Shown here: positions 26,089 through 60,704 of the stretch, one piece after another
Numbering within the stretch: position 1 is the first letter of the stretch
How the letters are laid out: each line of letters opens with the position of its first letter
Made by a program: the position numbers and the translations under genes
Assembly: GCA_036172245.1 (NCBI GenBank)
Contig: JAYWIR010000054.1
Span: 1 to 64,000 of the forward strand
DNA length: 64,000 bases
Direction of reading: 5' to 3'
DNA from: Raillietiella orientalis
Lineage: Eukaryota
The notes under the pieces: model-generated
What the model was told of the DNA's origin: nothing
The model's database searches: none
Seen by the model: only the letters and a program-made list of their open reading frames with translations

Positions 26089-28515
26089 TTGTGGAGAGCG
26101 GACGTGCTTTTCCTGCGCTCCGCCTGCGTGGCAAAGCGAGTGTTTTTTCTTCTTAATGATTTGTGCGTGCACATCGTCGGTGTCCGATGGCAGCCTTGCC
26201 AGAGTACACCGCGATGGAAGTAGGCGTGATGGAGGCTTGTTCGTCCCCACAGCCTACTGGATCAGGGGCATCCGCCCCGGAATCGTCCCCGGCGACGCCA
26301 AGGTCCTGGAGCGCCATGGTGGCCGCGCCTAGCGTGGAAGCCATGGCCGAGATGGAAGCCTACAAGAAAGCGTGGTATAAACCCTCGCTAGTCTACAAGG
26401 TAGGCAACCTTTTCGATGGGTGAACTGCACGCGCCTTTACGAAGGCGCTGCAGGACGCCAATATTTTTGAAAAAGATCTCGACGGCCTCTGCGTCCTCAG
26501 CGGCGGGCAGCGGGTCGAGGTGGTATGCAAGGATATCACCTTGGCCCGACACCTGATCACCGACCCGGTGATCGTTGATGGTCGGAAGTTCTTGCCGATA
26601 ACGATGGACCGCTCGGTGGTGGTCCATCTCACTGGGATCTCAAGTCGCATGACGAGGTCAGCGGTTCGAGAACAGCTTCAAAAGCACGGAGAAGTGCACG
26701 CGTTGTGGCCGAAGTCCACGATTTTCCAAGGCTACAATAGCCTTTTCGGAGGTCAAGCAGCGGCGCGTATCACGGTAAAAGAGAGTGGTGCGCTTCCCCA
26801 TAAGCTGGAGGTCTGCCAAGAAGCGGTGGACCTCTGGTACGTGGGAAAACGCCAATTTTGTGGCTAATGCAATGCAGTAGGGCATCTACGAAAGAGGTGC
26901 CCGAACATTGTGTGCCACCTATGCGGCCAAAAGGGTCACGTTCGGCGCGTGTGCCCCAGGCGCCCCACCCCGGTGCCCCCTGCCGCCAAAAAGGCGCAGG
27001 GAAAACGTGGAAAGCTGGTAGAAAGACCAGCTCGCGAAAATGGCCGTTCCCAATAGCCAGCCTCTCTTCCTCCCGTACAGACGTCGGAGCAAATAGCTCC
27101 CGTGGACGCGGGAATGGAGAAGGGTTGGCAGCTCGTTCAGGCCAGAAAAGAGAAAAAAAAGAAAGTGATGATAGAAGAAAATTCGGAGAAGAAAACTGCC
27201 GGCAACAAGAAAAAAGCCGCGCCGCTTTCGAAAAAAAAACTCCGCGAATGCTCGGTGGCACTGGAACGCTTAGCCGTTCCTGCCGAGTCCGCCCGCGGCA
27301 ATGTTCGCGGAACAGCTGAAGCGGACGCGATGAATACTCGCGCGGACGAGCCCATTCTACGTGTAGAGGGTGAGACGCGAGACTCGCGCGCCGACAGCCA
27401 GGACGCCGCCCTCGATAAAATCGCGGAGGAGCCCGCGGCAACGTTCGCCGTCAACGATGACGCCGCGCTCGATGAGGTCGCGGAGCAGCCCGCGGCAACG
27501 GTCGCCGCTGGCGAAGACGCGGCCTTCGAGAAAGCGGCGGAGGAGCTCGCAGCAACGCTCGCCGAGCGCGAAACCCCGTCGCGCAAGGGCGTACGCAGGT
27601 CGGCTCCGACGAAGAAGGCCTCCACAGGTGAGTGCGACCTAAGGGCCGGAAGCGGATCCTCCTCCTCGGAGGCACCCCCCAGGAAGTCGGGACGCAAGTC
27701 CCAGAAACCCAGGAGGCGCCTCCCCTCCACCAGCGAGGAGTAGAAACCGGAAGGAAGCGGCAGCGTGGGAATACCCACGCCCGGAAGCCGACGAGTCGGC
27801 CACCCCCATGGAGGAGGGAGAGCAGGGGGGTGAAGTCCTCCCTGCAGTCGCGAAACCTGAGCAGCCCGAACCCATGGAGCAAGGCGAACAGGTAGGCGCG
27901 ACTCCACCTGCGGGTGATCCGGCCGACGCGCCGGCAACGATGGAGGAGGAGGAAAAGGTGTCTTCAGTACCTGTCCCCCCTCCCCCTCCACCTAGCGTCC
28001 CGCCCCAGCAGGTGGCGGACGCCGCATCGCCGTTTTCCCTGGACTAACACCTGGGCTCGCCAGTCGCCGTCGGATTCGCGCGGCCTGTTGGAACGTGAAC
28101 GGGCTGCGCGTCGACGGCAACAGGCGAGATACAGCCGACACCCTGCGTGAGCTCGACCTGGCGCTGCTGCAAGAGATCCACGTGATCACCGCGACAGACG
28201 CCCAGGAAATCGAGACGATCGCGGGGGGTCGGCTGTATTGGCGATGCGGCCTCCGCAACACTTGCGGGGTCGCGTTCTTCGTGAAGCCGGCCATCGACGC
28301 TGCCGTAAAGGGCGTGCGGTTTGATGACGACGGTCGGATCGGTCAGCTGATTCTCAGCTGGTCCGACTCGATCGACCTATTCGTCACAAACGTGTATGGC
28401 CCCAGCGGCAAACAGGGGAACCGCGACCGCACCAGGCTGCTGGAAACCCTGAAGCGCGACTGGCTGGCGGAGACCAATGTGTGAAAGGCTCACCTGATAG
28501 CGGGAGATTTCAATC
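26089..28515 (+). mobile_element. LINE family B2, copy 2 (5' end, ORF1, endonuclease up to GDFN)
   Basis: 5' motif at 26098. ORF1 pieces 26163-28047. WNVNGL..NVYGP..HLIAGDFN. Resumes at 34422 after the H-1 insertion. Confidence 0.92.
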
Positions 28516-28689
28516 GAGTGCGGACGTGTTTTTCTTCGCTCTCGTCTCCGTGCTTTCATCCGCTTCATCTTGGCGTCGTACATTTTGACGACGATGTCGA
28601 CCCAACTTGAAGCTACTGAAGTTTGAGGAACAGCATCCGGATCTGCAATCGCGGAACCGACGGCCGCCTCCACTTCGTCTTTCTCGCCA

Positions 28690-30516
28690 ATGGAGAGGAG
28701 TTTTGCTGACGTTGCTGCCACAGCAGCCGTCAAAGGGAAACCACTCGACGAGTCGGAGTTGCGGGCATACGTAGCCCAAGGCTATAGACCTGCTCTCCGA
28801 TATGAGGTGAGTGGTTTTCTTTCTGCGCGCGACGGGAATCAGTTCAACGATGAACTGACCCGTGTTGGCGTGCGGGAGGAGGACCTTCTCGCCATTATGC
28901 CCGTAAAAGACATGGGCTATTTCAAGGTGCGTTGCAAAGACGCTGCACTTGTGCAACGCTTGCTGCGCACCCCGTTGTCGATCCGTGGCCAGAAGGTCTT
29001 CCCGGCCGCCATGGACGACTCATTTGTGGTGAAGATTTTCGACATCGAGTCGGAAATCTCCGATACTGATATTCGGAACGCGTTGGCGGAATTCGCCACG
29101 GTCCATGCGCTGTGGAGGGTGCGTAGCAACCTCAAGGACTTCCCGTCCATACACAGCGGAGTCGCTGGAGTCCGGCTTACAATGCCGGACCGCCGTCTGC
29201 TGCCCACCAAACTACAGGTAAAAGACACGGTCGTTCACCTGTGGTTCGTGAGCAAAGTAAAAACGTGCGAGCAATGCGGGAAGGAGGGGCATTGTTTGGA
29301 TAAATGCCCCTCTGGAAAATGCCGTTATTGCAAACTATCCGGGCACCAATTGAAAAATTGCCCGGATCTTTTGCGAAAAAAGGCAGCCGCGGAGCTCCAT
29401 CCTAGAAAACAGAGCGCGGATAAAAAGAAAAAATCTGCGAAAAACCTGGAGACCCCACGGCAGAAATTCGGTAAAAACGCGAGGCGGAATGTCGCCCCAA
29501 AGCAGCAGGAAACCTCGCACGCGAAGCCCTGCGCGCCCCCTCTCGCGGCAGGGGAGCTGCAAAAGAAAGGGTGCGGGGAATCCGGGGCAATGGTGAATCC
29601 CCCTAGGCGCAATACCTGTCCTAACCTAGCACGCCCGGCTCTCTCGGAGTTCGAGCAGCCGGCGGGGACGCCAATGGACAACGGCGGTAAGGACACTTCC
29701 AGTACCGTCAAATCCATTCCTTCACCTCCTGCAGTGGCTGAGAAGCCCAAATCGGGTAAGAAGGGTTGTGCCGTGTCGACTTCGAAAGTCGGCAAAAAAA
29801 AATCCACGTCGCGATCCAACACCGCGAAAGCGGAGAAAAATCTCACGCCGTCGCAGTCGGAGAGCAAGCTCTCGACTGGCGCGGATGCCATGCCAACGAA
29901 GGGATTAAAAGCCCTTCCGAAAGCAGCGTCCATGACGAGCGTGTCGGAGCCATCGAAAGTGGTCCCGTCCAAAGACGCGGATGGCTTCAAAGATGGCAAT
30001 GGAGCACAATCTCTATTTACGGCGCCACGCGAAGTGAGGAACCGTAATGAAGTAAAGAAGACTTCAGCAAAGGTCCCTCGTGCAGCTGCGCGTGAGCACG
30101 CTGAAAACGCGCGCGCCGGGAAAGCAGCCGTCACCAAAAGCGATGCTCTGGTGACGGAAAACGAAAACAGGACAGCTGTGAATCCAGCAGAACCTGTCAC
30201 TGCTTTGCGGAAGGCCGAAACCCGATCGAACATGCGCCGGTCGGACTCCGAAATGGATGCCGTTCCGATCACCGAGACGAGGACAACTCGTTCGAAAGCG
30301 TGGGCGCGCCGATCAAAAGTAGGCAGCCAGGCAACGCTCGCCGCGAAGCAACGCGAAGTCTCCACGAAACCCGACGGGGTTCAGCCTGGCGTGGAGGCAT
30401 TACATGCATGCAGCACGACAGAGGACGGTGGCGACCGTCCCCTCCAGCCAGTCGTGCTGCTCGCCGTCTGCTCGCCGGATAAAGCGAGCAAAAAGCTGCC
30501 ACCTTCCCAGCAGTAA
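28690..30516 (+). CDS. LINE ORF1 gag-like protein (family H)
   Basis: 608-aa ORF with CEQCGKEGHCLDKC and CRYCKLSGHQLKNC. Ends in a TAATG overlap with ORF2. The true start may lie slightly upstream. Confidence 0.87.
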   Translation: MERSFADVAATAAVKGKPLDESELRAYVAQGYRPALRYEVSGFLSARDGNQFNDELTRVGVREEDLLAIMPVKDMGYFKVRCKDAALVQRLLRTPLSIRGQKVFPAAMDDSFVVKIFDIESEISDTDIRNALAEFATVHALWRVRSNLKDFPSIHSGVAGVRLTMPDRRLLPTKLQVKDTVVHLWFVSKVKTCEQCGKEGHCLDKCPSGKCRYCKLSGHQLKNCPDLLRKKAAAELHPRKQSADKKKKSAKNLETPRQKFGKNARRNVAPKQQETSHAKPCAPPLAAGELQKKGCGESGAMVNPPRRNTCPNLARPALSEFEQPAGTPMDNGGKDTSSTVKSIPSPPAVAEKPKSGKKGCAVSTSKVGKKKSTSRSNTAKAEKNLTPSQSESKLSTGADAMPTKGLKALPKAASMTSVSEPSKVVPSKDADGFKDGNGAQSLFTAPREVRNRNEVKKTSAKVPRAAAREHAENARAGKAAVTKSDALVTENENRTAVNPAEPVTALRKAETRSNMRRSDSEMDAVPITETRTTRSKAWARRSKVGSQATLAAKQREVSTKPDGVQPGVEALHACSTTEDGGDRPLQPVVLLAVCSPDKASKKLPPSQQ

Positions 30517-33500
30517 TGCGGGGAATCGCGTCTTCTCGTCGTCTGTCCGTAACGTGTTGGAACGTGAACGGACTGCAGAACGATGAGAAGAGGCGATTAG
30601 TAGCCAACGCCCTGCGCCCCTTCGACCTCGCGCTGCTGCAGGAGATTCACGTAATCTCCGACGAGCAGGCAGCCGAAATCGAGGATCGCGCAGGCGGAAC
30701 GCTACATTGGCGGTGCAGCGGCGCACACACGTGCGGCGTCGCGTTCCTCGTAAGAGGAAAAATGGCGGAAGCGGTGCGTAGTGTTCGTTTCGATGACAAC
30801 GGACGGATAGGCCAGCTTGTCATCAAGTGGTCCGAGTCCATCGATCTCGTCGTTACGAACGTCTACGCGCCGAGTGGCTCTCGCTACCTCGAAGAAAGAG
30901 TAGCTTTCTTTGGTGAGGTGCAGAGCCAGTGGCTCAACAACTCCGGCTTCCAAGTGGCGCACCTCGTCGCTGGGGACTTCAACGTCCGCCTGCTCTCCGA
31001 CGATTGGAGCCGCCCGAGGTTGCGCGCGCTGCCCATCGAGATGTGCGCGTCCGTGCACGCCGCCAACTTGATGGTCAGCGAACCTGGAATGGAAAGATCG
31101 CTCGATCACGTTTTCCTCGATGAAAACCTGCATTCGCGAGTGGGTAGGAGAGGAAGATTGTTGACTGAGCTTTCTGACCACCACAGGTTAGAGTTTGAGA
31201 TCCTTCCGCCAGGCAGGGGGCCTCCGTTGCAAAGCTGGAGGATGCAGGCGGATTGGCTTAGCCAACCGGAGGCTGCGGAGCATCTACGTGGATACCTCCG
31301 GGGCTTTGCCATTCAAGAACTTGCGGACTGGGACGATCTCAAAAGATCTGTCCGCGAGTTCTGCTGCCAATTCCCCTTGCACCGGCTTCCACGCGGTTTC
31401 GGAGAGGGCGTGGCCAACAGTAGAGACTTTCTGCAGGCCCGCACGTTTTCGAGACGCGCGGATGTCTAGCGTCTCGGAGAGTACAAGGCGAGGGCCGAGC
31501 GCCAGGTCTGGCAGTCCGGAGCAGCATGCCTGTTGGACGACAAGGGCCAGGAATGTTCGGCCCCAGCCGAAGTACGCCGCATTGTGAGACGCTACTACTC
31601 CTCGCTGTACTCGGAATCCCCGACGGAGGATATTCATTCTGAGATACTCCTGTCTCAGGATGCTCGTGTTGTCGGCGAGGAGGAACGCGAACGTCTCGAC
31701 GAGCCCTTCACGGCGGATGAATTTTCGTCCGCCATCGCTGGGCTGAAGAGACGAAAGGCGCCAGGCGAGGATGGGCTGCCTGCAGAGTTTTATCAGTGCT
31801 TTGCAGTGGAGCTCATTCCCTTGATGCTTAAACTCGCGACGCTGATGAGTGAATCCGGGAATGTCCCTGATTCCTTCCGCTCAGCGAAGGTGCGTCTCCT
31901 GCCGAAAGGCGGAGACTTGCGACAACTTAACAACTGGCGTCCGATCACCTTGGTGAACTCGGACGTCAAGTTGTTTTCCAAGCTGTGGGTCGCGCGGTTA
32001 GGAAGAATCGCGGAATCTGTGGTGAGCCCGCAACAAACCTACGCGGTTCCGGGACGATCCATGGAGGCGAACACCCTTTTCGCGCGTACATGGATGCAGC
32101 TGCAGGAAGTTGTGGCGCAGCAAAGCCAGGCTGCTGCGAAAGTCACTGCCGCAGGCAAAAAGAACAGGCGCCGACGGCAGGAGGGAACGCCAGGTGCCTT
32201 GGCGGTCGCGGTCGATCTCCACAAGGCGTTCGACTGCGTAAACCAGAAGCTCCTTTTGGAGCTTATGGAACGCCTTGGGTTCCCGGCGCAACTCCTGCTG
32301 TATTTGCGCGCGTGCTGGCGCCACGCGCTAACCTGCATCACTTTTAGCGGCTGCCGCGTGTATGGTATTCCCGTTCGTAGGGGCATCCGACAGGGCGACA
32401 GCTTAAGCCCGTTGCTCTTCAGCATCTTCTTTGAGTTGGTGCTAAGAGCATACAGGCTGACGCTGTCTCACTTGCCAAGCTCCTGCCCGGGAACGCCTGC
32501 CGTGGCCGCCTACGCTGATGACCTGCTTCTTCTGCTCCTCATGTCCACCCCGGCGTCCAGTGTCGAGGATTTCTTCGACCTGATTCGTCGGGGAGCGGGC
32601 GTGAGCGTGAACAGAGAGAAGAGCGTGGTCGTTCCTGTGGGTATGTCGTGGGAGGGGCAGTCCGACTGGATCCGCCTGGGGATCCCCACGGGCGGGTACT
32701 TTAAGTACCTTGGCGTTCCGTTGGGCGCTTTCGGCGCAGCCGAAGCGTGGGCGGACTGTCTTCAGAAAGCAGAGTTGGCCATCAGCCCGTTCTTTAACGG
32801 CAAGTTTACCTTGCAGGAACGGGCGACTATTTGGAACACCTTTGTGGCCCCCTCCTCCGTCCCCTGTTTTTTGTTTTGGACCCCCCCTATGCGGCAAAAC
32901 AGCGGGCTAAGCGCCTGCTCAGGAACGCTCTCTGGGGTCCGGCGAGATCCAGGATCCGCCTTAAAGATTTGTCAGCTCCGCGTCGGGATGCTGGTTTGGG
33001 TATCCTGACAATGGAGCGAATCGGACTGCAGGTGCAGTTCCGACTGCTGGCACTGTGTGCCCAGCTATGGACATCCCCCCTGTGTGTGCCAGCTCGCATT
33101 ATCCTGCGGAGATGCGCCGGCAGCGGAGGATTTCTCTCGCTTTTGCCGGGCACTCAATACAGGAAGCGGGGTTTCGGGTTTCCATTGCGGCAGTTGACCG
33201 CACTTCTGGAAGCACACTCTGGGATCTCCTGCCGCCCAATGAACTTTGAAGCTTGGCGGCAGGAGTCTGTTGAATCCTGGGCGGCGTTCCAAGGAATACG
33301 CCCTGAAGATCTTCGCCCCCTGCGCCAATTTTTTCCACGATCCTTGGAAGAAGTACTGCAGGACGAGGTGAAGTTTTCTACCATGGTTGCCACGCCTCTT
33401 GCCGCAGCGCTGTCTGCCCTCAGGGCAAGAAAGGACAGTTACCAACCGGCGAGGTGGGAGGTTTCCTGCACGATAGCGGGAAGAACCAAACTCCTTGGCA

Positions 33501-34108
33501 CCTGGAAGACTAGTGAGTTGGCGGACGCCGCCACTCCTCGTGTTACTGCAAAGGGACTCCTCCGGTGGGCAGAAGAACTTGCTGTCATCCCCGAAGAACT
33601 TGTAGTCCCTCCACAGTGTATGGACAGTTCGCTGCTCCCCCTTGCTTGGAAACAAGCCGTGCTGCTTTTCGTTCACTGGGGTTTTCAGTGCAACGAGCGT
33701 TGGCATCGTGACTCCGGGGGACTTGCGTCTGCGAACTGCGTTCGGTGCGGATCGACGGAGTCGATTCCGCACCTACTTCTGGACTGCGGTGTCCTACAAG
33801 GACTGTGGCGTAGGCTGGCAACAGCACTAATGCTTCCCGTGGACACCGCAAGAGACTTGCTGCGGCGATTCTTCGCGCCAAGCGGGCTATCTACAAGCGC
33901 AAGGATTGCAACCATCGGTTGCATACGCGCGATAGCTTCCGTCCGCCAGGCGTTGGTAATCAACAAACAGCACCAAGAGGTAATCAGCAAAGCATCCTTC
34001 TACATGGGAGCATCCGCTAGATGGCCTCATTTGACAGAGGAGACAAAGAGGAATCTCGCCGCAATACACCGCCGGTTTACACACCCTCATCAGCGGCCAA
34101 CCCGGTGA
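30516..34108 (+). pseudogene. ORF2 of H-1 (stop at 31467-31469, frameshift near 32855)
   Basis: WNVNG, GDFN, SDH, PGEDG, DLHKAFD, YADD and CVRCGSTESIPHLLLDC. Confidence 0.92.
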
Positions 34109-34421
34109 TCATTGCCCTACCCTCCATAAACTAAAATTGTATTTTCTTTTTACACCCGCGTCCCCATAGGCTCCGGAACATTTTAGGTGCTCATCGTATA
34201 AATCCCCGTGAGTACGGAGCCTAACCAAAAACCCGTTACCCTTCCCTCCAGTTTTTGATTTTTGTTTGTTTCCCCTCATTCCCCCCACGCTGCGAGCGGT
34301 TTGTTTACCAGGCCTGCGTGCCGGTAATTTTTCTGTGTTCTCTGTCGTTCTATTGGTTGGGGACATTGTCCCTGACCAGTTTATTATTATTAATAAACGC
34401 CCCGGCGTGACCGGGTGATAA

Positions 34422-36480
34422 ATTTCAATCTCCGCCTGCTAACAGGTGAGCCGGAAACACAAGTGAACGCGATGAACGAGTTGTGCGCCGCCATGCGTGC
34501 GCGAAACTTGTTCGCGGGTGAGAAAGGAATGGTCCGCAGCATCGACCACGTCTTCCTGGACGCTGACCTGTGTTCACGCATCTGCAAACGGGGGAGGGTT
34601 GTGTCGACGTTGTGGGACCATTCCCCGCTAATTATCGAGATGCGGCCTCGCGACAAAGGACCGCCATCCAGGGATTGGCGTCTGCCGGGGGACTGGACGC
34701 GACTCTCAAGTGCGAAGGAACACCTACGCGAATACCTGAGAGGCGTCACGCTCCCGAATCTCCAGGACTGGGACCTTTTTAAAGAATCGGTCCGCGAGTT
34801 CTGTGAGCAGTTCCCCCTGGATCGCCTGCCCCCCGGATTCGGCGAGGGTGCTCGCAACCATCGGGCCTATTTACAGGCTCGTAGGTACGAGAGAACCCCT
34901 AATGTCCGTCGCCTGGCCAAGTACCGCGCCGGGGCCGAACGCTTAGCCTGGCAATCCGGGTCGGCCAGCTTGCTGGACGACCAGGGCCGGGAATGTTCGT
35001 CCCCGGCGTCGGTACGGCATCTCGTGCGGAGTTTTTATTCCTCCCTTTACGCCAGGGAGCCCCCGGATCGAAACGCCTCTCGACGCTTGCTTCCGGATGG
35101 CACCCCGGCAATAGGGGAGGAGGAGATGGAAACCCTCGACGAGCCTTTTACCACCGGCGAAATTCTCGCCGGTATCAAAAGGCTCAAGAGGCGTAAAGCT
35201 CCAGGGGAAGACGGCTTGCCTGCGGAGTTCTTTCAGAGCTTCGCGGAAGAGCTGGCACCCCTGCTGCTTAAGTTGATCTGGCTGATCCGAGACGAAGGCG
35301 ATGTTCCCGCCTCGTTTCGGTCAGCCAGAGTGAGGCTCCTTCCGAAAGGGGGAGACCTCAGGAATTTAAAGAACTGGTGTCCGATCACAATCGTGAATAC
35401 GGACGCCAAGTCGATAGCAGGGCTATGGGCTTCGCGTCTGGGGCAGGTGGCAGAATCCGTAATTAGCCCGGAGGAGACGTATGCTGTTCCCGGGCGAAGT
35501 ATGGATGCCAACCTCTTCTTCGCAAGCACATGGGTGCACCTGCAGAGAAGAGAGAAGAAAGGGATAGGGAAAGTCGGCAACCCCACATTGGGGCCGCCAG
35601 CCAGGCTGAGAAGGGACCCCGGGCAGGAAAGGGGGCCCTAGCGCTCGCAGTCGATCTCCACAAGGCGTTCGACTGTGTAGACCAGGAACTCCTCTTGGAG
35701 CTCCTGGGTCGCATGGGCTTCCCACCCTCCCTGATTTCCTACCTGCGCTCTTGCTGGCGGAATGCGATGATTACCGTCTGTTTCAGTGGACAGAAGGTGT
35801 ATGGCGTGCCGGTGCGGCGGGGCAAAAGGCAGGGCGATAGCCTCAGCCCCCTGCTCTTTAGCACCTACTTTGAGTTGGTGCTGAGAGCGTACAGGGTTAC
35901 TTTGGCCCCATTGCAGAGCTCGTGCCCCGGCACGCCCGCCGTAGCAGCGTACGCCGACGATCTTCTGCTCTTGTTGCCAATGTCCACCCCGGCAAAGGCG
36001 GTCGCAGACTTCTTCGATCTGCTCAGCCGCGGGACCGGACTGCAGGTTAACAGGGCGAAGTCGTCGGTTGTGCCAAGAGGTGCGGCGTGGGCAGGGCAGC
36101 AGGACTGGGTCCGTCTGGGGATCCCCACGGCGAGGTGCTCCAAGTACCTTGGTGTGCCGTTGGGGGACTACTCCCCTGCGGAAGCGTGGTCCAGCTGCCT
36201 CCAAAAGTCGAGACGGCGATCGGCCCGTTCCTGGAAGGCAAGTTTCACTTGCCGGAACGGGCCGCGGTTTGGAACGCCTTCGCGGCCCCCATCCTCCGCC
36301 CTTTGCTTTTTGTTTGCCCTCCCACTGTGGAATCCAAGAAGAGGACGAAGGACCTCCTCCGTATCGCCCTTTGGGGCAAGGGGAGGCCCCGAGTCCCACT
36401 GAAGGACTTGTGCGCTCCGCGTCGGGACAGCGGTCTTGGCCTCCTGACGCTGGAGCGCGTGGAGAAGCAGCTGCGGTGGC
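34422..36480 (+). mobile_element. Continuation of B2-2 ORF2 (from FN to post-RT)
   Basis: Resumes at FNLRLL immediately after the TSD. RT motifs in ORFs 34415-35641 and 35530-36402. Confidence 0.88.
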
Positions 36481-36484
36481 GAAC

Positions 36485-39400
36485 CCACGCCATGTTACGG
36501 CAGCCTGCCAAGGCCGAGAAGAAGGCCTTGAGACGACCGGCAACGGTGAAGGGCCCGGAAAATTCCGAGTCCGAAACCGAAGCCGGTTGTTCTACTTCCG
36601 CAGCCGTGCCGAAGAGGAAGGCTGGCAAGAAGACCTGTTGCCCGAGACGGGTCGCCCCTCCGCAGGTGGAGGAGGCCATGTCCTCGGGCACGGAGGAGGA
36701 GGCAATGTGCGTCGCGCCACGCGACCCCTCTCCGATCCGTGTCTCGGAAGCCGGCCCCATGGAAGTCGCTGTGGACGACGTGCTCCCGTGTGAGCAGCCG
36801 ACCGTCGTCACGGCCGCCAACAAGCCGCCTCCCGAAAGGGAGGAGGCCGCCTCCACCCCAGCATAAGTACACCAATGCGTGGGCTCGCCTCCTGCCGCCG
36901 CTTGCGCATCACCTGTTGGAATGTCAACGGGTTGCGCGACGACGGAAAGAGGCGAGATGTAGCCGCCATACTGCGAGACTTCGACCTGGTGCTCCTGCAA
37001 GAGACGCACGTTCTCCGACCGGGAGATGTACAGGAAATCGAAAGAATCGCGGGAGGGCGGCTACTGTGGAGGAACGGAACGGACAACTCCTGCGGAGTGG
37101 CCTTTCTGCTAAAGCCAACCGTCGACAACTCACTGCGCAGTGCACGGGTCGACGGGGATGGTCGAGTTGGGCAGCTTGTGTTCAAGTGGTCCGACTCGAT
37201 CGTCCTCGTAGTCACGAACCTGTACGCTCCGGTGAGCAGCCACAGGGCCGAGGAACGCACTGCGTTCTTCGAAACCTTGCGGCGAGACTGGTTGGCCGAA
37301 GCAGGCGTGCGAAGGGCGCACCTCATTGCGGGCGATTTCAATCTCCGCCTGCTGGCAGGTGCGCCCAGCGGACGAGCACAGCTGGTCAACGAGTTGTGCG
37401 CAGCCATGCATGCGCGCAACTTGTTGGCCGGCGATGCCGGGAGAGATCGGAACATCGACCACATTTTCCTCGACAACCACCTGTGCACGCGGGTGGGAAC
37501 TCGAGGAACGCTCCCGGCAGAGCTGTCCGACCATCCACGGCTCGTGCTCGAGTTACATCCTCGCAATAAGGGCCCTCCCCTGAAAACATGGCGCCTGCCA
37601 GGGGATTGGTTGCGCCTCGCAGGAGCGGCGGAACATCTACGCTGTTTCCTGCGAGGATTCCAGCTTCACACGCTTGCGGACTGGGACGAAATGAAGTGCT
37701 CAGTCCGTGAGTTTTGCGACCAGTTTCCCCTGGAACGTTTTCCGCCGGGCTTCGGTGAGGGTGTCCGGAACGAGCGGGCGTACCTACAGGCGCGCCGTTA
37801 TTCCCGGCGTCCCGACGTCCGTCGCCTGGCTGAATTCAAGGCTGAGGCGGAGAGGCAGGCCTGGCAGTCAGGCTCGGCCTGCCTGCTGGATCATCAGGGC
37901 CAAGAACGCTCCAGCCCAGCCCAGGTAAGCCGCATCGTGCGGGAGTTTTATTCCTCCTTGTACGCGCCACTGACACCTGAGCGCCCTTTCGCGCAGCGCC
38001 TGCTGCCGGATGGCGCTCCCGCGCTCAAGGAGGAGGACCGTTCCAGATTGGCGGAACCGTTCACGATGGCGGAGATCATCTCCGCCATCAACAGGCTCAA
38101 GAGAAGGAAGGCACCAGGGGAGGACGGCCTGCCCGCGGAGTTTTACCATCGCTTCGCGCCAGAGCTGGCCCCCCTGGTGCTCAGGTTAAGTACTCTGATC
38201 CGCGAACACGGCGAAGTTCCCGCCTCGTTCTGGTCAGCAAAAGTACGTCTCCTGCCGAAATCAGGAGACTTACGCAACATCGGCAACTGGCGTCCCATCA
38301 CAGTAGTGAATGCGGACGCAAAGTTGTATGCCAAGTTGTGGGCTGAGCGTTTGGGGCGGGTGGCCGCTTCCGTGGTGAGTCCCGAGCAGACCTATGCTGT
38401 TCCCGGACGAACCATGGAGGCCAACCTGCTCCTCGGCAGCTCATGGTGGCAGTTGCGACAACGCGTTGCACAGGACGGTCAAGGGAGCCTCGCGCCCCCC
38501 TCTGACCAAGAAGATCGGGCAGAGGGTGGGATGGACTCGGCGGGAGCCTTTGCCGTCGCGGTCGATTTGCACAAAGCATTCGACTGCGTCGACCAGGATC
38601 TGCTTCTGGAGCTCCTGGAACGCATGGGTTTCCCTGCCGTGCTTCAATCTTACCTTGGCTCCTGCTGGCGCAACGCGTCAATCAATATTCGTTTCAGCGG
38701 TCGGCACGTGTACGGCGTGCCCATACGCCGCGGCATCCGGCAGGGTGACAGCCTGAGCCCCTTGCTCTTCAGCATCTACTTCGAGTTGGTGCTGAGGGCA
38801 TACAGGGTAACTCTGGCAACCCTGCCGAGCTCGTATGCCGGCACGCCTGCCGTGTCGGCCTATGCAGACGATCTTCTGCTGCTGCTTCCCGGGTCCACCC
38901 CGGCGAGTGCGCTCGAGGATTTCTTCGAGTTGCTGCGCCGCGGGACGGGCCTCGAGGTGAACAGGGCGAAGTCGTCCATGGTCTTCGTCGGTTCGGCGTG
39001 GGCTGGACGATCGGATTGGATACGCTTGGGGATCCCCACGGACAGGTGCTTGAAGTACCTAGGCGTTCCGATGGGGGACTTCTGCGCAGCAGAAGCCTGG
39101 TCCGACCGTCTCCAAAAGGCAACGTTGGCGACCGGTCCGTTCCAAGAAAGCAAGCTCTACTTGCAGGAACGGGCCGCGGTGTGGAACGCGTTTGCGGCCC
39201 CCCTTCTTCGCCCCCTACTTTTTGTGTGCTCCGCCCCTTACTTCATTTGTAAACGAGCAGCGGGCCTCCTGAGGACAGTCCTTTGGGGCAAAGGGAGGTC
39301 CCGTGTGAGGCTCAAAGGCTTGTGCGCTCCACGTAAGGACGGAGGACTTGGCGTTCTTACGCTGGAGCGCATTGAACTACAACTCAGGTTCAGGACTCTC

Positions 39401-40693: not shown

Positions 40694-40699
40694 ACGTGG

Positions 40700-41177: not shown

Positions 41178-41179
41178 AC

Positions 41180-43810: not shown

Positions 43811-43814
43811 TGGG

Positions 43815-45321: not shown

Positions 45322-45363
45322 AAGCCGCCCTCCTCCATTGTTCGGACGTGCATACTTACGCTC

Positions 45364-47400: not shown

Positions 47401-47439
47401 GCTAATGGACGGAGGCAGCTGTATGAGTGACATCACCAA

Positions 47440-48000: not shown

Positions 48001-48004
48001 CTTG

Positions 48005-51481: not shown

Positions 51482-52288
51482 ATGCCATACGGACATTTTT
51501 TATACTGATGCTTCACCCTCTGCAACTACTTGGAAAACGAACTACAACTGATAAAAGACTGGTGCAGACGACACTGCACATTCGCAGTAATCGGAAAAGA
51601 GACGGCAAGCACCGGAACACCACACCTCCAGGGATATTTCCAACTCCGCAATCCGCGGACCTTACCAAGCTTAAAAAGACCACCGTTTGAAAAAGCACAC
51701 CTCGAACGCGCAAAATGTACACCACAGAGCAGCTTACGGTACTGCACGAAAGAGGACCGCGAAGCTTGGACATACGGACTCATTCAACAACAAAAAGAAA
51801 CCAACGATTATCAAGACATGGTAAATATGCTTTTCAAACTTAACCAAACTAATACAGATGACTTTCAGATACTACAACTTATAAAAAATGGAGCAACAGA
51901 ACTGGACATACTAGAGCAACACACAAAATTTTACTCCAAGAACTTCAACTTTGTTAAAGAGTGCTTCAGATTAACAAGAAGCAGACTTCACCCTAACCCA
52001 ATGGCTAACCTACAACTGAGAAACTGGCAGATGGACATCCTTAAAATAATAAGGAGCACACCAGACCCCAGAAAAACACACTGGTTCTACGATCCCGTCG
52101 GAGGAATAGGAAAAACCACCTTCACAAAATTCTTGTACCTCAAAAAATCTGCGATATACATGCACAGCTGCAAGAAGGCCGATGCAGCCCACATTTACCA
52201 TGGAGAGAGGATAATAGTGGTTGATCTCACCTGAGACAACCAAGAAATAGTTCAATACGGATTCATCGAGACTTTGAAAAACGGAAGC
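51482..52288 (+). pseudogene. rep: Endogenous CRESS-DNA virus Rep (HUH endonuclease + SF3 helicase), copy 1
   Basis: Motif I CFTLCNY, motif II TPHLQGY, motif III YCTKE, Walker A GGIGKT, Walker B IVVDL, then ETLKNG. In-frame TGA at 51506 and 52232. 3'-truncated and AT-rich. Confidence 0.92.
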
Positions 52289-52852
52289 CTGAGGAGAACG
52301 AAACCCTAATGGTCATCTCACCCGCCTCGGAAGAGGCGGCTTCCCCCACACCGTCATCTTCCCGGCAGTAATGCCGGGAATCTCCTCCCGTCGTCGTCTG
52401 CGCATCGCCGTATGGAACGTAAACGGCATGACAGACGCCGGCAAGAGAGGAGACATGGCCGCCATTCTAGGATCGTTCGACCTTGCGCTGCTGCAGGAGA
52501 TCCATGTGATTTCTGCAGAACAAGCGCGGGAGATCGAACGCATCTTCGGAGGGCGGCTGTGGTATCAGAGTGGAAAATCGAGAAGTTGTGGTGTCGACTA
52601 CCTGCTTCAGCCCGCACTCGAGGTTGCGGCCCGTGGCGAGCGGTTCGACGATCACGGTCGTGTCGGCCAGCTGACTCTCAGTTGTTCCGACTCGATCGAC
52701 CTGATCGTCACGAACGTTTACGCCCCGAGCGGAGCGGACCTGACGAAGAGGAGGGCCAGGAAAGTATTTTTCCTTGCCGTCCGTCACGACTGGTTGACCG
52801 AGGCAGGCGTGCGGAATGCCCATCTGGTTGCAGGGGATTTCAACGTTCGCCT
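52289..52852 (+). mobile_element. LINE family A, copy 3 (ORF1 tail and endonuclease up to GDFN)
   Basis: TAATG junction at 52369-52373. MPGISSRRRLRIAVWNVNG...HLVAGDFNVRL. Resumes at 58577. Confidence 0.9.
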
Positions 52853-55800
52853 TCATACGAGTCGGACGTGATTTCGTGTCGCTCCGTGGTTCCGCTGTTT
52901 GGTTGTGTTTGTGCATCCCACTGCATATCCGTAAGGATGAGCAGTGAACAACGCAAAGTGGAAGACCTCGGGCCTTTGGTTCAGGAACTTCACGCAGCTG
53001 GAGTGATGGCGACAACGTGTGCGAGCCTCGCGCCACCGGACAGGAGCTTTGCGGACGTGGCTGCTTCTGCAGCCGTACAAGGATGCCTCCCCGACCAGGC
53101 GGAGATGCAAGCCTATGTAGCCCAGGGATACAAGCCTGATCTCCGCTATAACGTAAGTGGGGTAGGTAAGGCTGGGGAGGAGTTCGCGGACGAACTCTAC
53201 CGTGTGGGAGTGCGAGAAGAGGACCTCATAGCACTCATGCCTGTTCCAGCATTGGGCTATGTAAAGGTGCGATGCAAGCAGGCTGCGCTTGTGCAGCGGC
53301 TCCTCCGCACTCCTTTGCCCATCCGCGGAAAGAAAGTTTTTCCTTCCGCGATGGACGAGTCTTTTGTCGTTGTTCTCTCGGACGTAGAGCCGGAGATCAA
53401 CGACAAACAGTTGATGGACGCGTTGGCGAAATTCGCAACCGTTCATGCGGTGTGGAGGAAGGAGAGTTCCTACAGAAAATTTCCTTCCGTACACACAGGA
53501 TTTGCTGCGGTTAGGGTAACCGTTGCTAACCACCGCACGCTGCCTGCCACGCTACAGGTCAACGGCACGGTCGTTCACCTGTGGTTCGTTGGCAAATCTC
53601 GCGCGTGCGAGCAATGCGGCAAAGAAGGGCATCGGGGTAAAGAATGCCCTTCCCCGAAGTGCCGCTACTGTAAGGAGTCCGGGCACCAAATTAGAAAGTG
53701 CCCGGACATAAAGAAAAAAAAGGAGGCTGCTAACCTCCGACGTGCCAAAGAGTGCGCAGAGGAGAAAACAGCATCCTCAAAGAAAAAAAAACAGGCTCGC
53801 GAAAGGCCTAAGATAAAGAAGGCCCGAGCGCGGTCTCAAAGTTGGCTCCCTCAGCATCCAAGCCCCAAAAGGGCAATAGCGCGGCAGGGAAGCCATTTAA
53901 AAAAGGGCGAGAGGGCTCCGCGCGTACCGTTACTGTCCCAATAGCTGATCGCGGAAACGCTACTCGCGAAATGGGATCAGTAAAACCAGTGGCTCCGTGC
54001 GACAAGGCAAAAGGAGGACACGCGAAAGAAAATTGCGTGGTAACCGTCTCCTTGAGCGCTCTGTCCATTTCGGAGGCTTCAGTCGGAAACCTCACGAATG
54101 CGTCCGCAGGTGCGTCGGAAAAAGCCAACGAAAGCAGCGTTGCGTTGCCTCAAAACGCGCAGCAACCAGCTGCATCCTCCCCAACAAGACAGTCGCGGAG
54201 CAATCTCCCGACTGCCGCGGAGGCCGCGCTTTCGCCGCCTTTTGAGGGTGCAGCGAAAGCTGAGCCCCAGGCGGTTGCGGAGGTACGTTCGGAGGCGTCC
54301 CTCACGAAAGTCGAGGAGCGCTCCGCACGAACGGACGGTGGGTGGACGGTTGCAGTGAAAGGGAGAAAAATAAAATCTCCCAAACATTCTCCGCAACCTA
54401 GTTCTAAGAGCCTCTCCAAGGCAAAGAACAGTCGCTCGATGCAGAAGACTCGGGCGAAGGTTCCCTCTGCCGCTGCAAAGGCTACCGCCGCGGTCGCGAA
54501 TGGCGCGACAGTTGCGATCACCAGGGACGATGTCCCGGTGATCGCGAAAAAGGAAGTGTCCGCGGTCCCATTCGCGAGCACCTCCAAACCGACAGAGCAG
54601 GTGAGTCGCGAAGCGCCTGCGCTTCAATCAGACTCCCAAACGGAGTCTAAGATCACCGACGCACTTCGGATCACACGCGCGGAAGCCGTAGCGCGACGGG
54701 CTAAGGCCCTGAGGCGCGCAGCGCAGGCCGCGAAGGAGCGACAGCTCACCCCGGACCGTCAAACGACCCTACCCGGAGACGAGCACTCGAATTCGTGCAG
54801 CACCAGGGAAGACGGTGGCGACCGTGATCTCTAGCCAGCAGTGCTGCTTACCGTCCGCTCGCCGGTGAAAGCGGGCAAAAAGCCGCCAACTTCCCAGCAT
54901 TCATGCGGGGAATCGCTTCTTCTCGTCGCCTGTCCGTCGCGTGTTGTAACGTGAACGGACTGCAGAACGACGAAAAGAGGCCATTGGTAGTTAACGCCCT
55001 GCACTCCTTTGACCTCGCGCTCCTGCAGGAGATTCACGTAATCTCCGACGAGCAGGCTGCGAAATCGAAGAGCGCGCAGGCGGAACGCTACTTTGGCGGT
55101 GCGGCGACCCACACACGTGCAACTTCGCGATCCTCGTAGGAGGAAAAATGGCGGAAGCGGTACGTGGCGTTCGCTTTGATGACTGCGGACGGGTGGGCCA
55201 GCTTGTTGTCAAGCGGTCCGAGTCCTTCGATCTCGTCGTTAAGAACATCTACGCGCCTACTGGCTCACATCTTCCTCGATGAAAACCTGCACCCTCGTGT
55301 GGGAAGAAGAGGAAGATTGTCGTCCGCTCTCTCTGACCATCACAGGTTGGAGTTCGAGCTCCTTTCGTCAGGCAAGGGGCCTCCGTTAAAGAACTGGAGA
55401 ATGCCAGCGGATTGGCTTAGCCATCCGGAGGCGGTGGATCATCTCCGTTAGCACCTCCGGACCTTTGTCATCCGCGAACTCGCGGACTGGGATCATTTAA
55501 AGAGTTCAGTCCGCAAGTTCTGTGAACGGTTTCCCTTGCACCGGCTTCCGCGAGGCTTTGGACAAGGGGTCGCCAACAGCAGGACTTTCCTGCAGGCGCG
55601 CACCTTTTCGAGACGCGCGGATGTCAGCCGGCTTGCGGAATACAGAGCGAGAGCCGAGCGCCAGGTCTGGCAGGCAGAAGCATCTTCCCTGCTCGATGAA
55701 AAAGGCCTGGAATGCTCGGCACCAGCCGGTATTCGCCGCATAATAAAAAGTTATTACTCCTCGCTATACGCGGAAGCACCAACGGAAATTATCCTTTTGG

Positions 55801-58576
55801 AGATACTGCTTTCCCAGGTTGCTGCCGTAGTTAGCGAAGAGGAACGCTCACGTCTCGACGAGTCCTTCACGGAGGAGGAAATTTCCTCCGCAACAGCGAA
55901 GCTCCAGAGACGAAAAGCGCCAGGCGAGGATGGGCTGCCTGCGGAGTTTTATCAGTGCTTCGCGGGGGAGCTCGTCCCCCTGGTGCATCGCCTCTAGTCG
56001 CTGATGAGGGTTTCGAGGGATGTCCCCAACTCCTTCCGCTCAGCGAGGGTGCGTCTCCTTCCGAAAGGTGGAGACGCACGCCATTTAAACAACTGTCGTC
56101 CGGTCACTTTGGTGAACTCGGACGTCAAGTTGTCCTCCAAGATGTGGGTTGCGCGCCTAGGGAGAATCGCGCCATCCTTGGTGAGCCCGGAGCAGACTCG
56201 CTGTTCCCGGGTGATCCATGGACGCGAACCTCCTGTTTGCACGCATCCGGATGCAGCTGCAGGAGCGCGTAGCGCAGCAAAGTCGATCCGTGACAAATGC
56301 CACTGCTAAACGCACACGGTATCGACAGAAGCGGCAAGAGAGTACGCCGGGTGCCTTGGCGGTTGCAGTCGACCTCCACAAGGCGTTCGATTGCGTAAAC
56401 CAAGCACTCCTATTGGAGCTCTTGGAACGCCTAGGTCTCGCTGCTCAACTCCTCAAGTACTTGCGCGCATGCTGGCGCCACGCACTAACTTCCATTTGTT
56501 TAAGCGGCTGCCACGTGTACGGTATTCCCGTGCGCAGGGGCATCAGGCAGGGTGACAGTTTAAGCCCGTTGCTCTTCCGCATCTTCTTCTAGTTGGTGCT
56601 AAGGGCGTACAGGCTGACGCTGGAGTACCTGCCTTGCTCTTGCCCGGGAACGCCTGCCGTGGCTGCCCATGCAGATGACCTGCTTCTTCTGCTCCCCATG
56701 TCCATCTGGGCGTCCAGTGTGGAAGACGTCTTAGACCTGGTTCGTCCTGAGCGGGCGTGAGCGTGAACAGAGAGAAGAGCGTGGTCGTTCATGTGGGTGC
56801 GTCGTGGGAGGGGCAGTCCGACTGGATCCGCCTGGGAATCCCCACAGCGGGGTACTTCAAGTACCTTGGCGTTCCGTTGGGCGACCTCGGCGCTGCCGAG
56901 GCGTGGTCGGACTGCCTTCATAAGGCCGAATTGGCCGCCAGCCCGTTCATTAACGGCAAGTTCACCTTGCCGGAACAAGCGGCTATTTGGAACACCTTCG
57001 TGGCCCCCCTCCTCCGACCCCTCTTTTTTGTCTTGGACCCCCCCTATGCGGCCAAAGAGCGGGCAAAACGCCTGCTAAGGAACGCTCTCTGGGGTCCGGC
57101 GCGATCCAGGATCCGCCTAAAAGACCTCACTGCTCCACGTCGGGATGCTGGGCTTGGCATCCTTACGATGGAGAGAATCGGACTGCAAGTGCAGTTCCGG
57201 ATGCTCGCACTTTGTGCCGCGCTATGGACTTCCCCCTGTGTGCGCCTGCGCGCATCCTCCTGAGGAGGTGTGCAGGCAGTGAAGGATTACTTTCTTTGGT
57301 GCCTGGCTTGCGCCACAGGAAACAGGGATTTGGCTATCCTTTGAGGAAAATCGCCACCCTATTGGAAGCCAGTACGTGGATTACCTGCCGCCCAATGAAC
57401 TATAATGCTTGGAAGCAGGAAACCATTGATTCGTGGGCTGCATTCTTAGGGATGAGCCGTGAAGATCTTCGCCCCCTGCGTCAATTCCAGCCTTGGTCAC
57501 TCCAACATGTCATGCAGGACGAGGTGAAGCTTTCCTCCTTGGCCGCCACCCCCCTTGCCGAAGCACTGTCTGCCCTCGAGGCTCGAGATGACAGTAGCCA
57601 GCCGGCAAGGTGGGAGTTCTCCTGCACCATTGCAGGAAGAACAAAACCAGTTGGCAAATGGACCACGAGCGAGCTTGCGGATGCCGACACTCCTCGTGCT
57701 ACACCAAAGGGATTTCTTCGGTGGGGAGAAGCTCTTGGTGTTGCCCCCGAAGAACTTATAGTCCCTCCCTGGTGTTTGGACGGTTCGGTGTTTCCCCTTG
57801 CATAGAAGCAAGACGTTTTGCTTTTCTTGCACTGGGGATTGCGCTACAACGAACGGCGCCACCGAGTTTCCGGTGGGGTGGCTTCTAACCTACTGTGCCC
57901 GGTGCGGAGCTACAGAGTCGTTCCCGCACCTTGTTATGGACTGCGGTGCCCTCCAGGAACTCTGGAGGAGGCTAGGAGCAGCTCTCCCGTCACCAGGAGA
58001 CACCGCTCGAGAAGTGCTGCGACGGTTCTTCCAGACACAAGGACTTTCGATGGCTGCGACGATTTCCACTGTTGGTTGCATCCGGGCCATCGTCACGGTC
58101 CGAGACGTGCTGGAGAATACTGGACAGCAATGTTGTGTCACCAGGAAGGCAGCTGACTTCATCAGGTCGGCAGCTGGGTGGCGACACATATATGAAGACA
58201 CAACGGAGGAGTTGACCGGTATCCATCGCTGGATCAGCAACGGCTTAGAACGACGAAATCGGTGATCCGCCCTCATTTTATTTTTGATTGGTTTTTTTGT
58301 TCTCGCGTCCTTTTCCCTTTACGTTCCGCAGTCCTTTTGGTGGTAGAACTTTTGAGTTTCCCGGTGAGTGCGGAGCAATACTAAAGTTCCCTGCCCACTC
58401 CTCCCATTTACAATTTTTTTTTTTTTTGGACTCCCCTCAGTCGTCCATGTTCTTCCGTTTTCCTGGCCTGCGTGCCAGGGGTGAATCTCCGCTGCATGTT
58501 TTCAGAGTCGAGAGCTAGAAACAATTGTTTCCAGCTCGTTTATGTCAATAAACGTCCCGGCGTGACCGGGTGAAAA
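52853..58576 (+). mobile_element. Full-length degenerate LINE family H, copy 2, with 16-bp TSD
   Basis: atttcaacgttcgcct at 52837-52852 and 58577-58592. ORF1 from ATG 52937 (CEQCGKEGHRGKEC). ORF2 ~54903-58265. Hairpin at 58547-58576. Confidence 0.94.
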
Positions 58577-60700
58577 ATTTCAACGTTCGCCTGAAACCGA
58601 TTGGGCCGAATCACGAGCGGCACCTGGTCAACGAGGTGTGCATGGCGATGCAAACCTGTAATTTGTTGGCCAGTGCACCGGGGATGGAAGACAGCATCGA
58701 CCACGTGTTTCTAGAAGAGCACCTGTGCCCTCTCGTGGGCAGCAGCAGCAAGTTACCGTGCGAGCTGACCGACCATCGCCTGATAGTTCTCGAGATCCAT
58801 CCGCCCGACAGGGGCCCCCCCTCGTCAACGTGTCGTCTCCCAGGGGACTGGCTGAAGCTCCCAGACGCGGCGGAACATCTCCGCACGTTCATACGGAGCT
58901 TCAGGACGCAGACACTCCAGGATTGGGACCGCTTCAAACGGTCGGTCCAGTAGTTCTGCGACCAGTTCCCTCTGCACCACCTACCTACGGGTTTTGGGAC
59001 CGGGGTCCGTAACGAACGAGCCTACCTGCTGGCTCGCCGTTACGCCAGGAGCCCCGACATCTGCAGGCCGGCGGATTACATAGCGGGAGACGAGAGGCAA
59101 GCCTGACAGTCATGATCGGCCAGCTTGTTGGACGATCAGGGCCAGCAGCATTCGTCACCCGCTCAGATCCGCGGTCTGCTGCGGCGTTTTTACTTCTCCC
59201 TGTAAGCAAGAATGCCTCTTGAGCGGGATTTTTCACGACTCCTGCTTCCCGAAGGCGCTCCTGCGATCGGGGAGGAGAGAAAGACTCTCGACGAGCCTTA
59301 AACGATGGGCGAGATCATCTCGGCCATCGGAAAGCTCAAGAGGCGCAAGGCTCCAGGGGAGGACGGCCTGTCCGCAGAGTTTTATCAAACTTTCGATGCT
59401 GAGCTTATCCCCCTGGTACATCAACTCACCTTGCTGACACGCGACACAGGTGACGTTCCCGTTCCCGAAGAGTTCTCCCAATGCGTTAAGGTCCTTGTGC
59501 TCAGCAACGTCGTTAGAACAGAAACGTTGAGTTCATTAGTTCATAGTACCCCAGCTTGGCTTTTTCGGGCTCCAAGGTCTATGAAAAAGACAATCCACGC
59601 AAATGTTGATACCCGTTCCATAACCGTAGTATTCCCACCCTGACTTTGCATCAATAGACGCATTTCTTTGCGCTATGATGGTAAATCAACATCCTGGGAC
59701 TCTGTTTAGCAGCAGGATTTAATGCGAATCCAATACGCTAATTGAAATGATTAGTATGTGCACTCGGTTTGTAATAAATGCTTGATCAGACCAAAACAAA
59801 GTGAATGAAATAGTGATTCCAGACGGCATGTTGCCAGCAAAGTTATGGACAGCGCGGCTGGGACCGGTTTGCTAACGCCTTCATCAGCTTGGAGCAAACA
59901 TATGCTGTTTCCGGGAAAAGCATGGAGGCCAACCCATGCCACGCTTCCAGCTGGCTAGAGCTCCAACAAGGAATTTGATGCGCAGCCAGGATTCCGGTAC
60001 TTCCGTAGTAACGGGTCGTATGGTCGGGTGGGGGGGACCCCTTGTAGTCGCAGTCGACTTGCACAAAGCATTCGACTGTGTCGACCTGAATCTACTGCTG
60101 AAACTTCTGGAACGCTTGGGATTCCTGTCCACATTAGTGCCCTATCTGCGCTCCAGCTGGCGCGAAGCGCTCATCAACATTTCTTTCAGCGGGCAGACCG
60201 TGCACGGCGTGCCGGTGCGGCGTGGGATACGGCAGGGAGACGGCCTGAGCCCCTTGCTCTTCAGCGCCTATTTCGAACTGGTGCTGAGAGCGTACAGTGA
60301 GACTCGGCCGCACCTTCCGCGCGATTGTCCAGGTTCTCCTATGGTGTCAGCATACGCGGACGACTTTCTGCTGCTCCCCATGTCCACCTCGGTTTCGCCG
60401 CTCGAGTTCTTCGACCTGCTTAGTCGGGGAACCGGGCTTACGGTTAACATGGCGAAGTCGTCCGTGATGCCAGTCAGAGCGGCGTGAGCCGGGCAGCAAG
60501 ACTGGGTCTGTTTGGGGATCCCTTCGGTGAGGTACTTCAAGTACCTTGGTGTGCCGTTGGGGGATTATCTTCCTGCGGAAGCGTGGTTCGGCTGCCTCCA
60601 GAAGTCACAGACGGCGACCAACCCGTTCCAAGACGACAGGTTTTTCCGGCAGGAACGTGCCACGGTGTGGAACGCGTATTAGGCCCCCTCCTTCGCCCCT
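58577..60700 (+). mobile_element. Continuation of A-3 ORF2, interrupted by a foreign insert at ~59461-59830
   Basis: FNVRLKP...IDHVFL, PGEDG, DLHKAFD, YADD. Ends at APLLRPL. Confidence 0.88.
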
Positions 60701-60704
60701 TGTA

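Follow-up and report, generated by a model that had tools for sequence, protein, structure and literature searches.

Long interspersed nuclear elements (LINEs) with a specific target are known for ribosomal DNA (rDNA), small nuclear RNA genes, telomeres, microsatellites and a DNA transposon. The subject here is H, a group of two related LINE copies in a stretch of 64,000 nucleotides from Raillietiella orientalis (the window: positions 1 to 64,000, forward strand, of contig JAYWIR010000054.1, GenBank assembly GCA_036172245.1). Both copies are inserted, in sense and at the same base, in the codons of GDFN, a catalytic motif of the LINE endonuclease, each in a LINE of a different family. H probably reaches this site by sequence-specific target-primed reverse transcription (TPRT).

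Sequence-specific endonucleases of the apurinic/apyrimidinic endonuclease (APE) type are established for Tx1L and R1Bm (PMC1950540), and the excerpted text of PMC4640811 lists transposons among the targets of specific LINEs. According to the excerpts of PMC1950540, the APE-type endonuclease of the LINE Tx1L of Xenopus laevis nicks a single specific sequence; the target is Tx1D, itself a transposable element, and insertion there harms the host little. R1Bm and R2 target host rRNA genes (28S rDNA for R1Bm), R2 with a restriction-like endonuclease. Clusters made only of LINEs are described for Zepp and ZeppL of green algae, where they arise by nested insertion into existing copies (excerpts of PMC8226300 and PMC3446292), and the excerpts of PMC12810828 describe CNL1 of Cryptococcus neoformans as inserting preferentially into its own copies, in arrays.

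Two H copies in the GDFN codons of other LINEs

H-1 lies in element B2 and H-2 in element A. Each is flanked by an exact direct repeat, of 9 bp for H-1 and 16 bp for H-2, and the first base of both repeats is the A of GAT, the Asp codon of GGN-GAT-TTC-AAY. The first-pass annotation had named these hosts and repeats, with one start base in the Asp codon and differing lengths. Indeed, the repeats lie at exactly the positions that it gave, which are listed here with the parts of the elements (all on the + strand), and the codon is GAT in both hosts.

26094..28515, +: host B2, left part, with 5' end gagagCGGACGTG, ORF1, and endonuclease up to GDFN
28507..28515, +: upstream copy of atttcaatc, the target-site duplication of H-1, within the GAT-TTC-AAT codons of host B2
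28516..34421, +: H-1, full length, 5906 bp, an L1-like element
28516-28689, +: H-1 5' untranslated region (UTR), which starts gagtgCGGACGTG
28690-30516, +: H-1 open reading frame (ORF) 1, 608 aa, with two CX2CX4HX4C (CCHC) knuckles visible in the translation
30516-31469 (endonuclease), 31533-33008 (reverse transcriptase) and 32831-34108, +: H-1 ORF2 in three pieces, with PF03372 and PF00078
34401-34415, +: hairpin of the H-1 3' UTR, which carries AATAAACG; tail TGATAA
34422..34430, +: downstream copy of the H-1 duplication, where host B2 resumes
34431..36494, +: right part of host B2 (ORF2 residues ~157-844), up to element J, which is 5'-truncated
52287..52852, +: left part of host A, with endonuclease residues 1-159; host A is a 5'-truncated member of the A/X family, 85% identical here to element X-1
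52837..52852, +: upstream copy of the H-2 duplication (atttcaacgttcgcct), in host A
52853..58576, +: H-2, full length but decayed, 5724 bp, with 5' end tcatacgagtCGGACGTG
53039-53806 and 54424-54900 (zf-CCHC), +: remnants of H-2 ORF1
54903-58229, +: remnants of H-2 ORF2, with frameshifts and ~70 codons deleted, its own GDFN among them
58556-58570, +: H-2 3' hairpin; tail TGAAAA
58577..58592, +: downstream copy of the H-2 duplication (atttcaacgttcgcct), where host A resumes
58593..60709, +: right part of host A (ORF2 residues ~160-787); identity to element X-1, 81-87%

The ends of H are defined by the elements themselves: both copies open with (GAGTG/GAGT)CGGACGTG and close with AATAAACGYCCCGGCGTGACCGGGTGA(T/A)AA. 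The probability of finding an exact repeat by chance at boundaries that are fixed independently in this way is ~4e-6 for the 9-mer and ~2e-10 for the 16-mer. Terminal repeats are absent, and duplications of the target (9 and 16 bp) are present. The first A of each repeat may instead belong to the A-rich tail of the element, so that the nick is placed to within 1 nt.

The flanks at the 3' end of both H copies map, in sense, to residue 155 of ORF2, numbered on the following reference, which is the intact ORF2 of the window.

36875..40432, +: intact ORF2 of element J, 1185 aa, with endonuclease, reverse transcriptase and a putative C-terminal zinc-binding region; coordinate reference

In tblastn searches with this ORF2, its residues 3-156 are matched in host B2 as far as 28514, the match resuming at 34403, and its residues 1-159 in host A as far as 52853, the match resuming at 58576. 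Excision of H together with one copy of the repeat restores in-frame endonuclease ORFs that read through AGDFN in both hosts (...AHLIAGDFNLRLL... and ...AHLVAGDFNVRLK...). The uninterrupted element X-1, 85-87% identical to A, aligns across the host A junction with an overlap of 14 nt. In one contig of sequencing run X1, 28506 is joined directly to 34422; 9 letters fit both sides, and the shorter side has only 21 letters. This contig appears to be the empty-site form of a B-like host.

The endonuclease of J aligns to human L1 endonuclease structures (E=1.8e-6 to 1.5e-4), and its GDFN (residues 153-156) falls on G144-D145-F146-N147. In the excerpted part of PMC1950540, the L1 endonuclease mutants D145A and D145A/N147A have no activity. 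The motif is therefore correctly called catalytic, and the description of the insertions as sense events in catalytic GDFN stands: it agrees with the mapping of the flanks, with the restored frames and with the alignment to the L1 enzyme.

The endonuclease ORF of H-1 is open (317 aa) and keeps all the APE catalytic motifs. PF03372 is detected in 30516-31469 (E=1.8e-13) and PF00078 in 31533-33008 (E=1e-21). An alignment of seven endonuclease sequences shows the motifs N, E, Y, GDFN, DH and SDH, and residues specific to the H lineage flank GDFN on both sides. In the ORF that includes H-2 ORF1, PF00098 scores 23 bits (cut-off 20.8). Both present copies of H are dead: the ORF2 of H-1 is in three pieces, and that of H-2 has the frameshifts and the deletion listed above.

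By ORF coordinates, the stop codon of H-1 ORF1 and the ATG of ORF2 (30514-30518) share one base; in J, they are 8 nt apart. This overlap suggests that ORF2 of H-1 may be translated by coupled termination and reinitiation.

A probable homing mechanism

H seems to be a small lineage of L1-like retrotransposons without long terminal repeats (non-LTR), with an APE endonuclease and a reverse transcriptase. The reading that we favor, and hold to be likely, is that H homes by sequence-specific TPRT at G^ATTTCAAY in the GDFN codons of other LINE families. The APE-type endonuclease of H would nick the bottom strand opposite G^A, in the Asp codon of families A and B; duplexes of GGNGATTTCAAY are predicted to be nicked in preference to scrambled ones or to GAC-TTC variants. 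The freed 3'-OH would then prime the synthesis of cDNA at the fixed 3' end of H, which consists of AATAAACG, the 5-bp GC hairpin, TGA and 2-3 A. The top strand would be cut 9 or 16 nt downstream, giving duplications of different lengths. The outcome would be a full-length insertion in sense that destroys the endonuclease of the host element, and the orientation would permit co-transcription from that element.

Probably the endonuclease, and not another domain or RNA pairing, reads the site, and the order of the nicks is that expected from the TPRT model. The proposal of a precise first nick and a variable second one, already present in the first-pass annotation, fits the identical 3' junction and the 9 and 16 bp of the two duplications. 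Only the terminal A of H can pair with the primer; targeting would thus not depend on RNA–DNA pairing, unless read-through transcripts are used.

Length of the recognised sequence

GGNGAYTTYAAY occurs 7 times in the window, where 0.29 occurrences are expected. All four GATTTCAA octamers of the window are GDFN sites, and two of the four are occupied by H. The three GDFN sites that are spelled GAC-TT(C/T), that of H-1 among them, are all free of H.

The GDFN of H-1 itself (30972-30983) reads GGG-GAC-TTC-AAC and differs from the occupied GAT-TTC targets at the base beside the nick. The GAC spelling may protect H-1 from self-insertion, for which 0/3 GAC sites and 2/4 GAT sites are too few to make a test.

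Several points weigh against homing. The coincidence in the window, 2/2 copies of H at the same base, is one of only two events. The window is almost all LINE, so that an avoidance of other DNA by H is not visible. Two good GDFN sites, in element X-1 and in J (GGCGATTTCAAT at 37331), are empty. If ATTTCAA alone is the site, the window offers nine such sites before insertion, of which four are GDFN, and both hits fall in GDFN with p ~0.2. As for reuse of sites by other families of the window (described below), it is not universal: E5 and E3 are single events elsewhere, the 5' junction of host A, a member of the X family, lies in a Rep-like gene and not at the KAFD codons, and K, which is J-like, lies in an ORF1 and not at the site of J.

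The sequencing runs also bear on this. Run X1 contains 0.58 of the words of the stretch, and runs X2 and X3 next to none. At 80% likeness, 232 contigs of run X1, one of run X2 and seven of run X3 were aligned, in a comparison that covered H-1. The H-1 ORF1 and the H-1 3' UTR each lie under a single contig of run X1 at this threshold (>=80%), so the H-1 subfamily looks single-copy there, which is a further point against homing; a second 3' UTR of the H-1 type is absent among the matches listed for the run contigs at 80% likeness. The loose ends at 34392 and 34423 (two contigs each) belong to another family, which has only the last ~32 nt in common with H-1 and a different flank. The contigs of run X1 over the H-1 junctions include only 30 and 19 letters of the host and are not counted as bridging. 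This run may be the source of the window itself, and it is not taken as independent support.

The alternative that survives best, although we consider it unlikely, is that H prefers a short motif of 6-8 nt, such as G/ATTTCAA, in the way that L1 prefers TTTT/AA, and that the two hits result from the regional bias of an island made only of LINEs; H would then be found in other DNA elsewhere. The p value of ~0.2 obtained with ATTTCAA is compatible with it, and so is the fact that the identity of the two targets beyond codon conservation is limited to the 7-8 bases around the nick. With TTTCAA, which has 32 pre-insertion sites including the four GDFN, two hits in GDFN have p ~0.016; at least 7 nt would therefore have to be read. 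Moreover, none of the five ATTTCAA sites outside GDFN is occupied, and sister families are equally exact in reusing other sites. From the letters of two events, a short motif of 7-8 nt and a longer recognition site look indistinguishable.

Independence of the two insertions and age of the specificity

The two H events are independent (INDEPENDENCE), because the hosts belong to different families, the divergences are unequal and the repeats are typed by host. A tree was calculated from a reverse transcriptase alignment of 876 columns and 10 copies. In this tree, H-1 and H-2 are sisters (99/97) and G-1 is next (100/100), whereas host A is the sister of X-1 (100/99) and host B2 that of P1 (100/100). 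To force A and B2 into one clade costs 134.7 log-likelihood units and is rejected by the approximately unbiased (AU) test (p=3e-5).

It is very improbable that the two H copies go back to a single ancestral insertion that was carried along when its host underwent segmental duplication, gene conversion or composite retrotransposition. Such a history would explain the common junction base and orientation, and a 13-nt deletion at the 5' junction of H-1 could in principle convert a 16-bp duplication to one of 9 bp. It predicts equal divergences of H and host, and no duplications typed by host. However, A and B2 are only 61-65% identical, while A is close to X-1 (85-87%) and the left part of B2 is 93.6% identical to B1 (1-1600, (-)); H-1 and H-2 are 77-86% identical. 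The path between the hosts (0.78) is far above that between the H copies (0.32). Both copies of each duplication carry the sequence type of their own host. The surroundings of the two hosts are also different: the full-length B2 is antisense in element K, at ~residue 288, while A is 5'-truncated and stands beside a Rep-like ORF. The independence of the events, which had been claimed from the different hosts and repeat lengths, is thus borne out.

Random nested insertion with a regional bias of the Zepp kind and no sequence specificity can be dismissed: the nest is dense and has at least 11 3' ends, which makes many pairs of junctions comparable, but two random insertions in an element of ~5.7 kb share base and orientation with p ~1/11,400, so that ~0.005 coincidences are expected among the 55 pairs, where three exact ones are seen, all within families (H-1/H-2, X-1/X-2 and J/J2), and the 5' junctions of family B are identical too.

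The differences between H-1 and H-2 at the first, second and third codon positions amount to 0.176/0.119/0.354 in the reverse transcriptase and to 0.30/0.18/0.52 in ORF1. The excess at third positions means that a large part of these differences arose in active lineages, under purifying selection. The lineages of H split while active and still have the same target base, so two diverged sublineages used one site. An old specificity of H, which had been proposed from the divergence of the two copies, is supported by these sequences.

Sites reused by other families

The homing proposed for H gains credibility from the reuse of family-specific sites across the group. The A/X family offers a parallel.

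9171..14743, +: element X-1 (A/X family), antisense in G-1 at the RT (reverse transcriptase) 'KAFD' codons, target-site duplication TCGAACGCC; no insertion in the GDFN site of X-1 itself (GGAGATTTCAAC at 11407)

X-1 and X-2 (2448-4801, (-)) are 89.6% identical and belong to the family of host A. Both are flanked by TCGAAYGCC and lie antisense at ORF2 residue 569, in the Asp codon of 'KAFD' in motif A of the reverse transcriptase. The duplication of X-1 is 9 bp, and the hosts, G-1 and P1, are of different families (57% identical). The nick of X in the catalytic Asp codon of the reverse transcriptase mirrors that of H in the Asp codon of the endonuclease.

In family B, the 5' junctions of B1 and B2 are identical (...gccgaatccccgYtgtg|gagagC(G/A)(G/A)ACGTG, antisense, at ~ORF2 residue 288), and their hosts, P1 and K, are 63% identical. 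Beside the 3' end of element R (50631, (-)), the flank begins TCGCCGAAACC, at residue 294 of host N; this would fit the B site with a duplication of ~19 bp.

Four junctions of family G, the sister of H, fall at a single antisense site of the endonuclease, 'AGGRL' (residues ~58-63). These are the 3' end of G-1 in E3 (7086 (-)), the 5' end of G-2 beside M (43544/43545), the 3' end of G-3 and the 5' end of G-4 (45319-45343). G-3 is followed by 13-19 nt of target and then by the G-type 5' end of G-4, in tandem. The sister lineages H and G thus differ in site and in orientation.

Element J (36490-41178 region) is 5'-truncated in ORF1, has an intact ORF2 and is followed by a copy of ~480 bp, J2. J and J2 are in tandem, in sense, and both are flanked by CGTGGCCG, at reverse transcriptase residue ~494-496 of a J-like host. 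Upstream, J is flanked by residue 844 of B2, and near 42190 the J-like host is replaced by sequence like that of B2, so that these junctions imply deletion or recombination. Other junctions are not explained by simple nesting (K2/B2 at ~42190, G-2 truncated at ~42870, G-3 to residue 143 of M, R to Rep-like DNA), and several imply deletions or rearrangements.

These data raise the possibility, which we advance tentatively and with somewhat less than even confidence, that at least five related LINE families form a guild whose members home into each other, each at its own base-precise target in a conserved coding motif. The targets would be GDFN in sense for H, KAFD antisense for A/X, the 'GFGEG' linker antisense for B, 'AGGRL' antisense for G and 'RVAAS' of the reverse transcriptase in sense for J. 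Targets would switch as families split, as for H and G, and mutual hyperparasitism would build and renew a LINE-only island that spares host genes. The guild is plausible and partly documented; the evidence for H is solid but thin.

Composition of the window and common features of the elements

The window has a G+C content of 51-63% and is a dense nest of related L1-like non-LTR retrotransposons, with at least 15 interleaved fragments. The intact ORF2 of J, used as a tblastn query, finds more than 40 segments on both strands, and ORF1 queries find about a dozen more pieces. In this ORF2, PF03372 (E=1.4e-16) and PF00078 (E=1.3e-22) are detected. The zf-RVT domain PF13966 scores 23.8 bits in J and 17.5 bits in H-1, both under the cut-off of 27.5 bits.

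Common to all families of the window are CGGACGTG, a 5' motif, and a 3' terminus in which AATAAA(C/T)G is followed by an invariant 5-bp GC hairpin, TG(A) and no more than a few A. The long poly(A) typical of the L1 clade proper is absent: 11 of the 11 3' ends close with the hairpin, TG(A) and 1-5 further bases. Such a structured end without poly(A) resembles that of the 'stringent' type of LINE. The hairpin has five pairs with no covariation seen, so that the structure is not proven. A scan of the window against Rfam at the gathering threshold returned no family, hence no recognised ribozyme at the conserved 5' ends.

A protein search with the intact ORF2 gave 168 matches among 8000 scored candidates; they are L1-like, and the best is only 28% identical. 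Most public homologues of this ORF2 carry PF13966, and the 168 matches include no close relative with flanks to study. Metagenome contigs scanned for the common 3' terminus, AATAAACGYCCCGGCG-N3-4-CCGGGTG, gave no match. A metagenome scan with the reverse transcriptase alignment gave 591 pattern matches that reduce to 22 loci, all of them distant (23-45% identity over short stretches).

The stretch 45344-48000, ~2.6 kb, matches no other part of the window at the nucleotide level, and its seven ORFs (99-178 aa) have no Pfam match; save for a weak ORF2-like match at 47447-48001, it is the sole sizeable stretch unlike LINE sequence. A Rep-like ORF at 51530-52234 (+), of 234 aa, matches PF02407 Viral_Rep (E=2.7e-10, 40.8 bits, cut-off 26) and shows the motifs HLQG, YCTKE and GGIGKT; it looks like that of a CRESS (circular Rep-encoding single-stranded) DNA virus. 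Host A, which is 5'-truncated, interrupts this copy at 52285/52287, and the 5' junction of host A abuts the ORF. A second Rep-like copy, 48% identical and with stop codons, lies at 62708-63364 (+), near the right end of the window. The two may be endogenous viral remnants or belong to another mobile element.

Comparison with known systems

Sequence-specific LINEs and nested LINE clusters are already known; the new part would be a LINE that targets a coding motif of other LINEs. In the literature searched, which leaves Repbase Reports and subscription journals out of scope, no LINE that homes to a catalytic-motif codon of other LINEs was found. If homing holds, H is a clear case of transposon hyperparasitism, with a safe harbour in the catalytic-motif coding sequence of its competitors; such a target, which codes for an essential Asp, would be hard to lose by mutation. 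Every hit of H would inactivate a rival LINE. If the behaviour extends to the whole guild, it would provide a sequence-level mechanism for the assembly and persistence of LINE-only islands of the Zepp type, which are possibly centromeric. It would also provide a natural panel of closely related APE endonucleases with different long recognition sites, from which the target choice of LINEs could be understood and re-engineered.

The nested arrays of Zepp and CNL1 are the nearest analogues. The window resembles the Zepp and ZeppL clusters in its nesting of LINEs, and the G+C content of Zepp (61%) is similar. The likeness is one of descriptions, which for Zepp and ZeppL, in the excerpts cited above, mention neither a base-precise site within a coding motif nor mutual targeting among several families; the Zepp clusters consist mostly of 3' fragments, whereas H-1 and H-2 are both full length. 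As excerpted, the account of CNL1 has no base-precise coding site, whereas H is APE-type and would target other families at a defined base.

With R1Bm and R2, as far as the excerpted sources describe them, H shares a precise 3' junction in a conserved multicopy sequence, the sense orientation, duplications that are variable or absent and a long-lived specificity across diverged lineages. The difference lies in the target, which is a gene of the host for R1Bm and R2 and a gene of a parasite for H. Tx1L is another parallel, which H resembles in the type of its endonuclease, in the apparent choice of one specific sequence and in the nature of the target, another transposable element. However, Tx1L occupies a non-coding site in a DNA transposon, whereas H lies in the codons that specify a catalytic motif of related LINEs, where insertion would disable a competitor.

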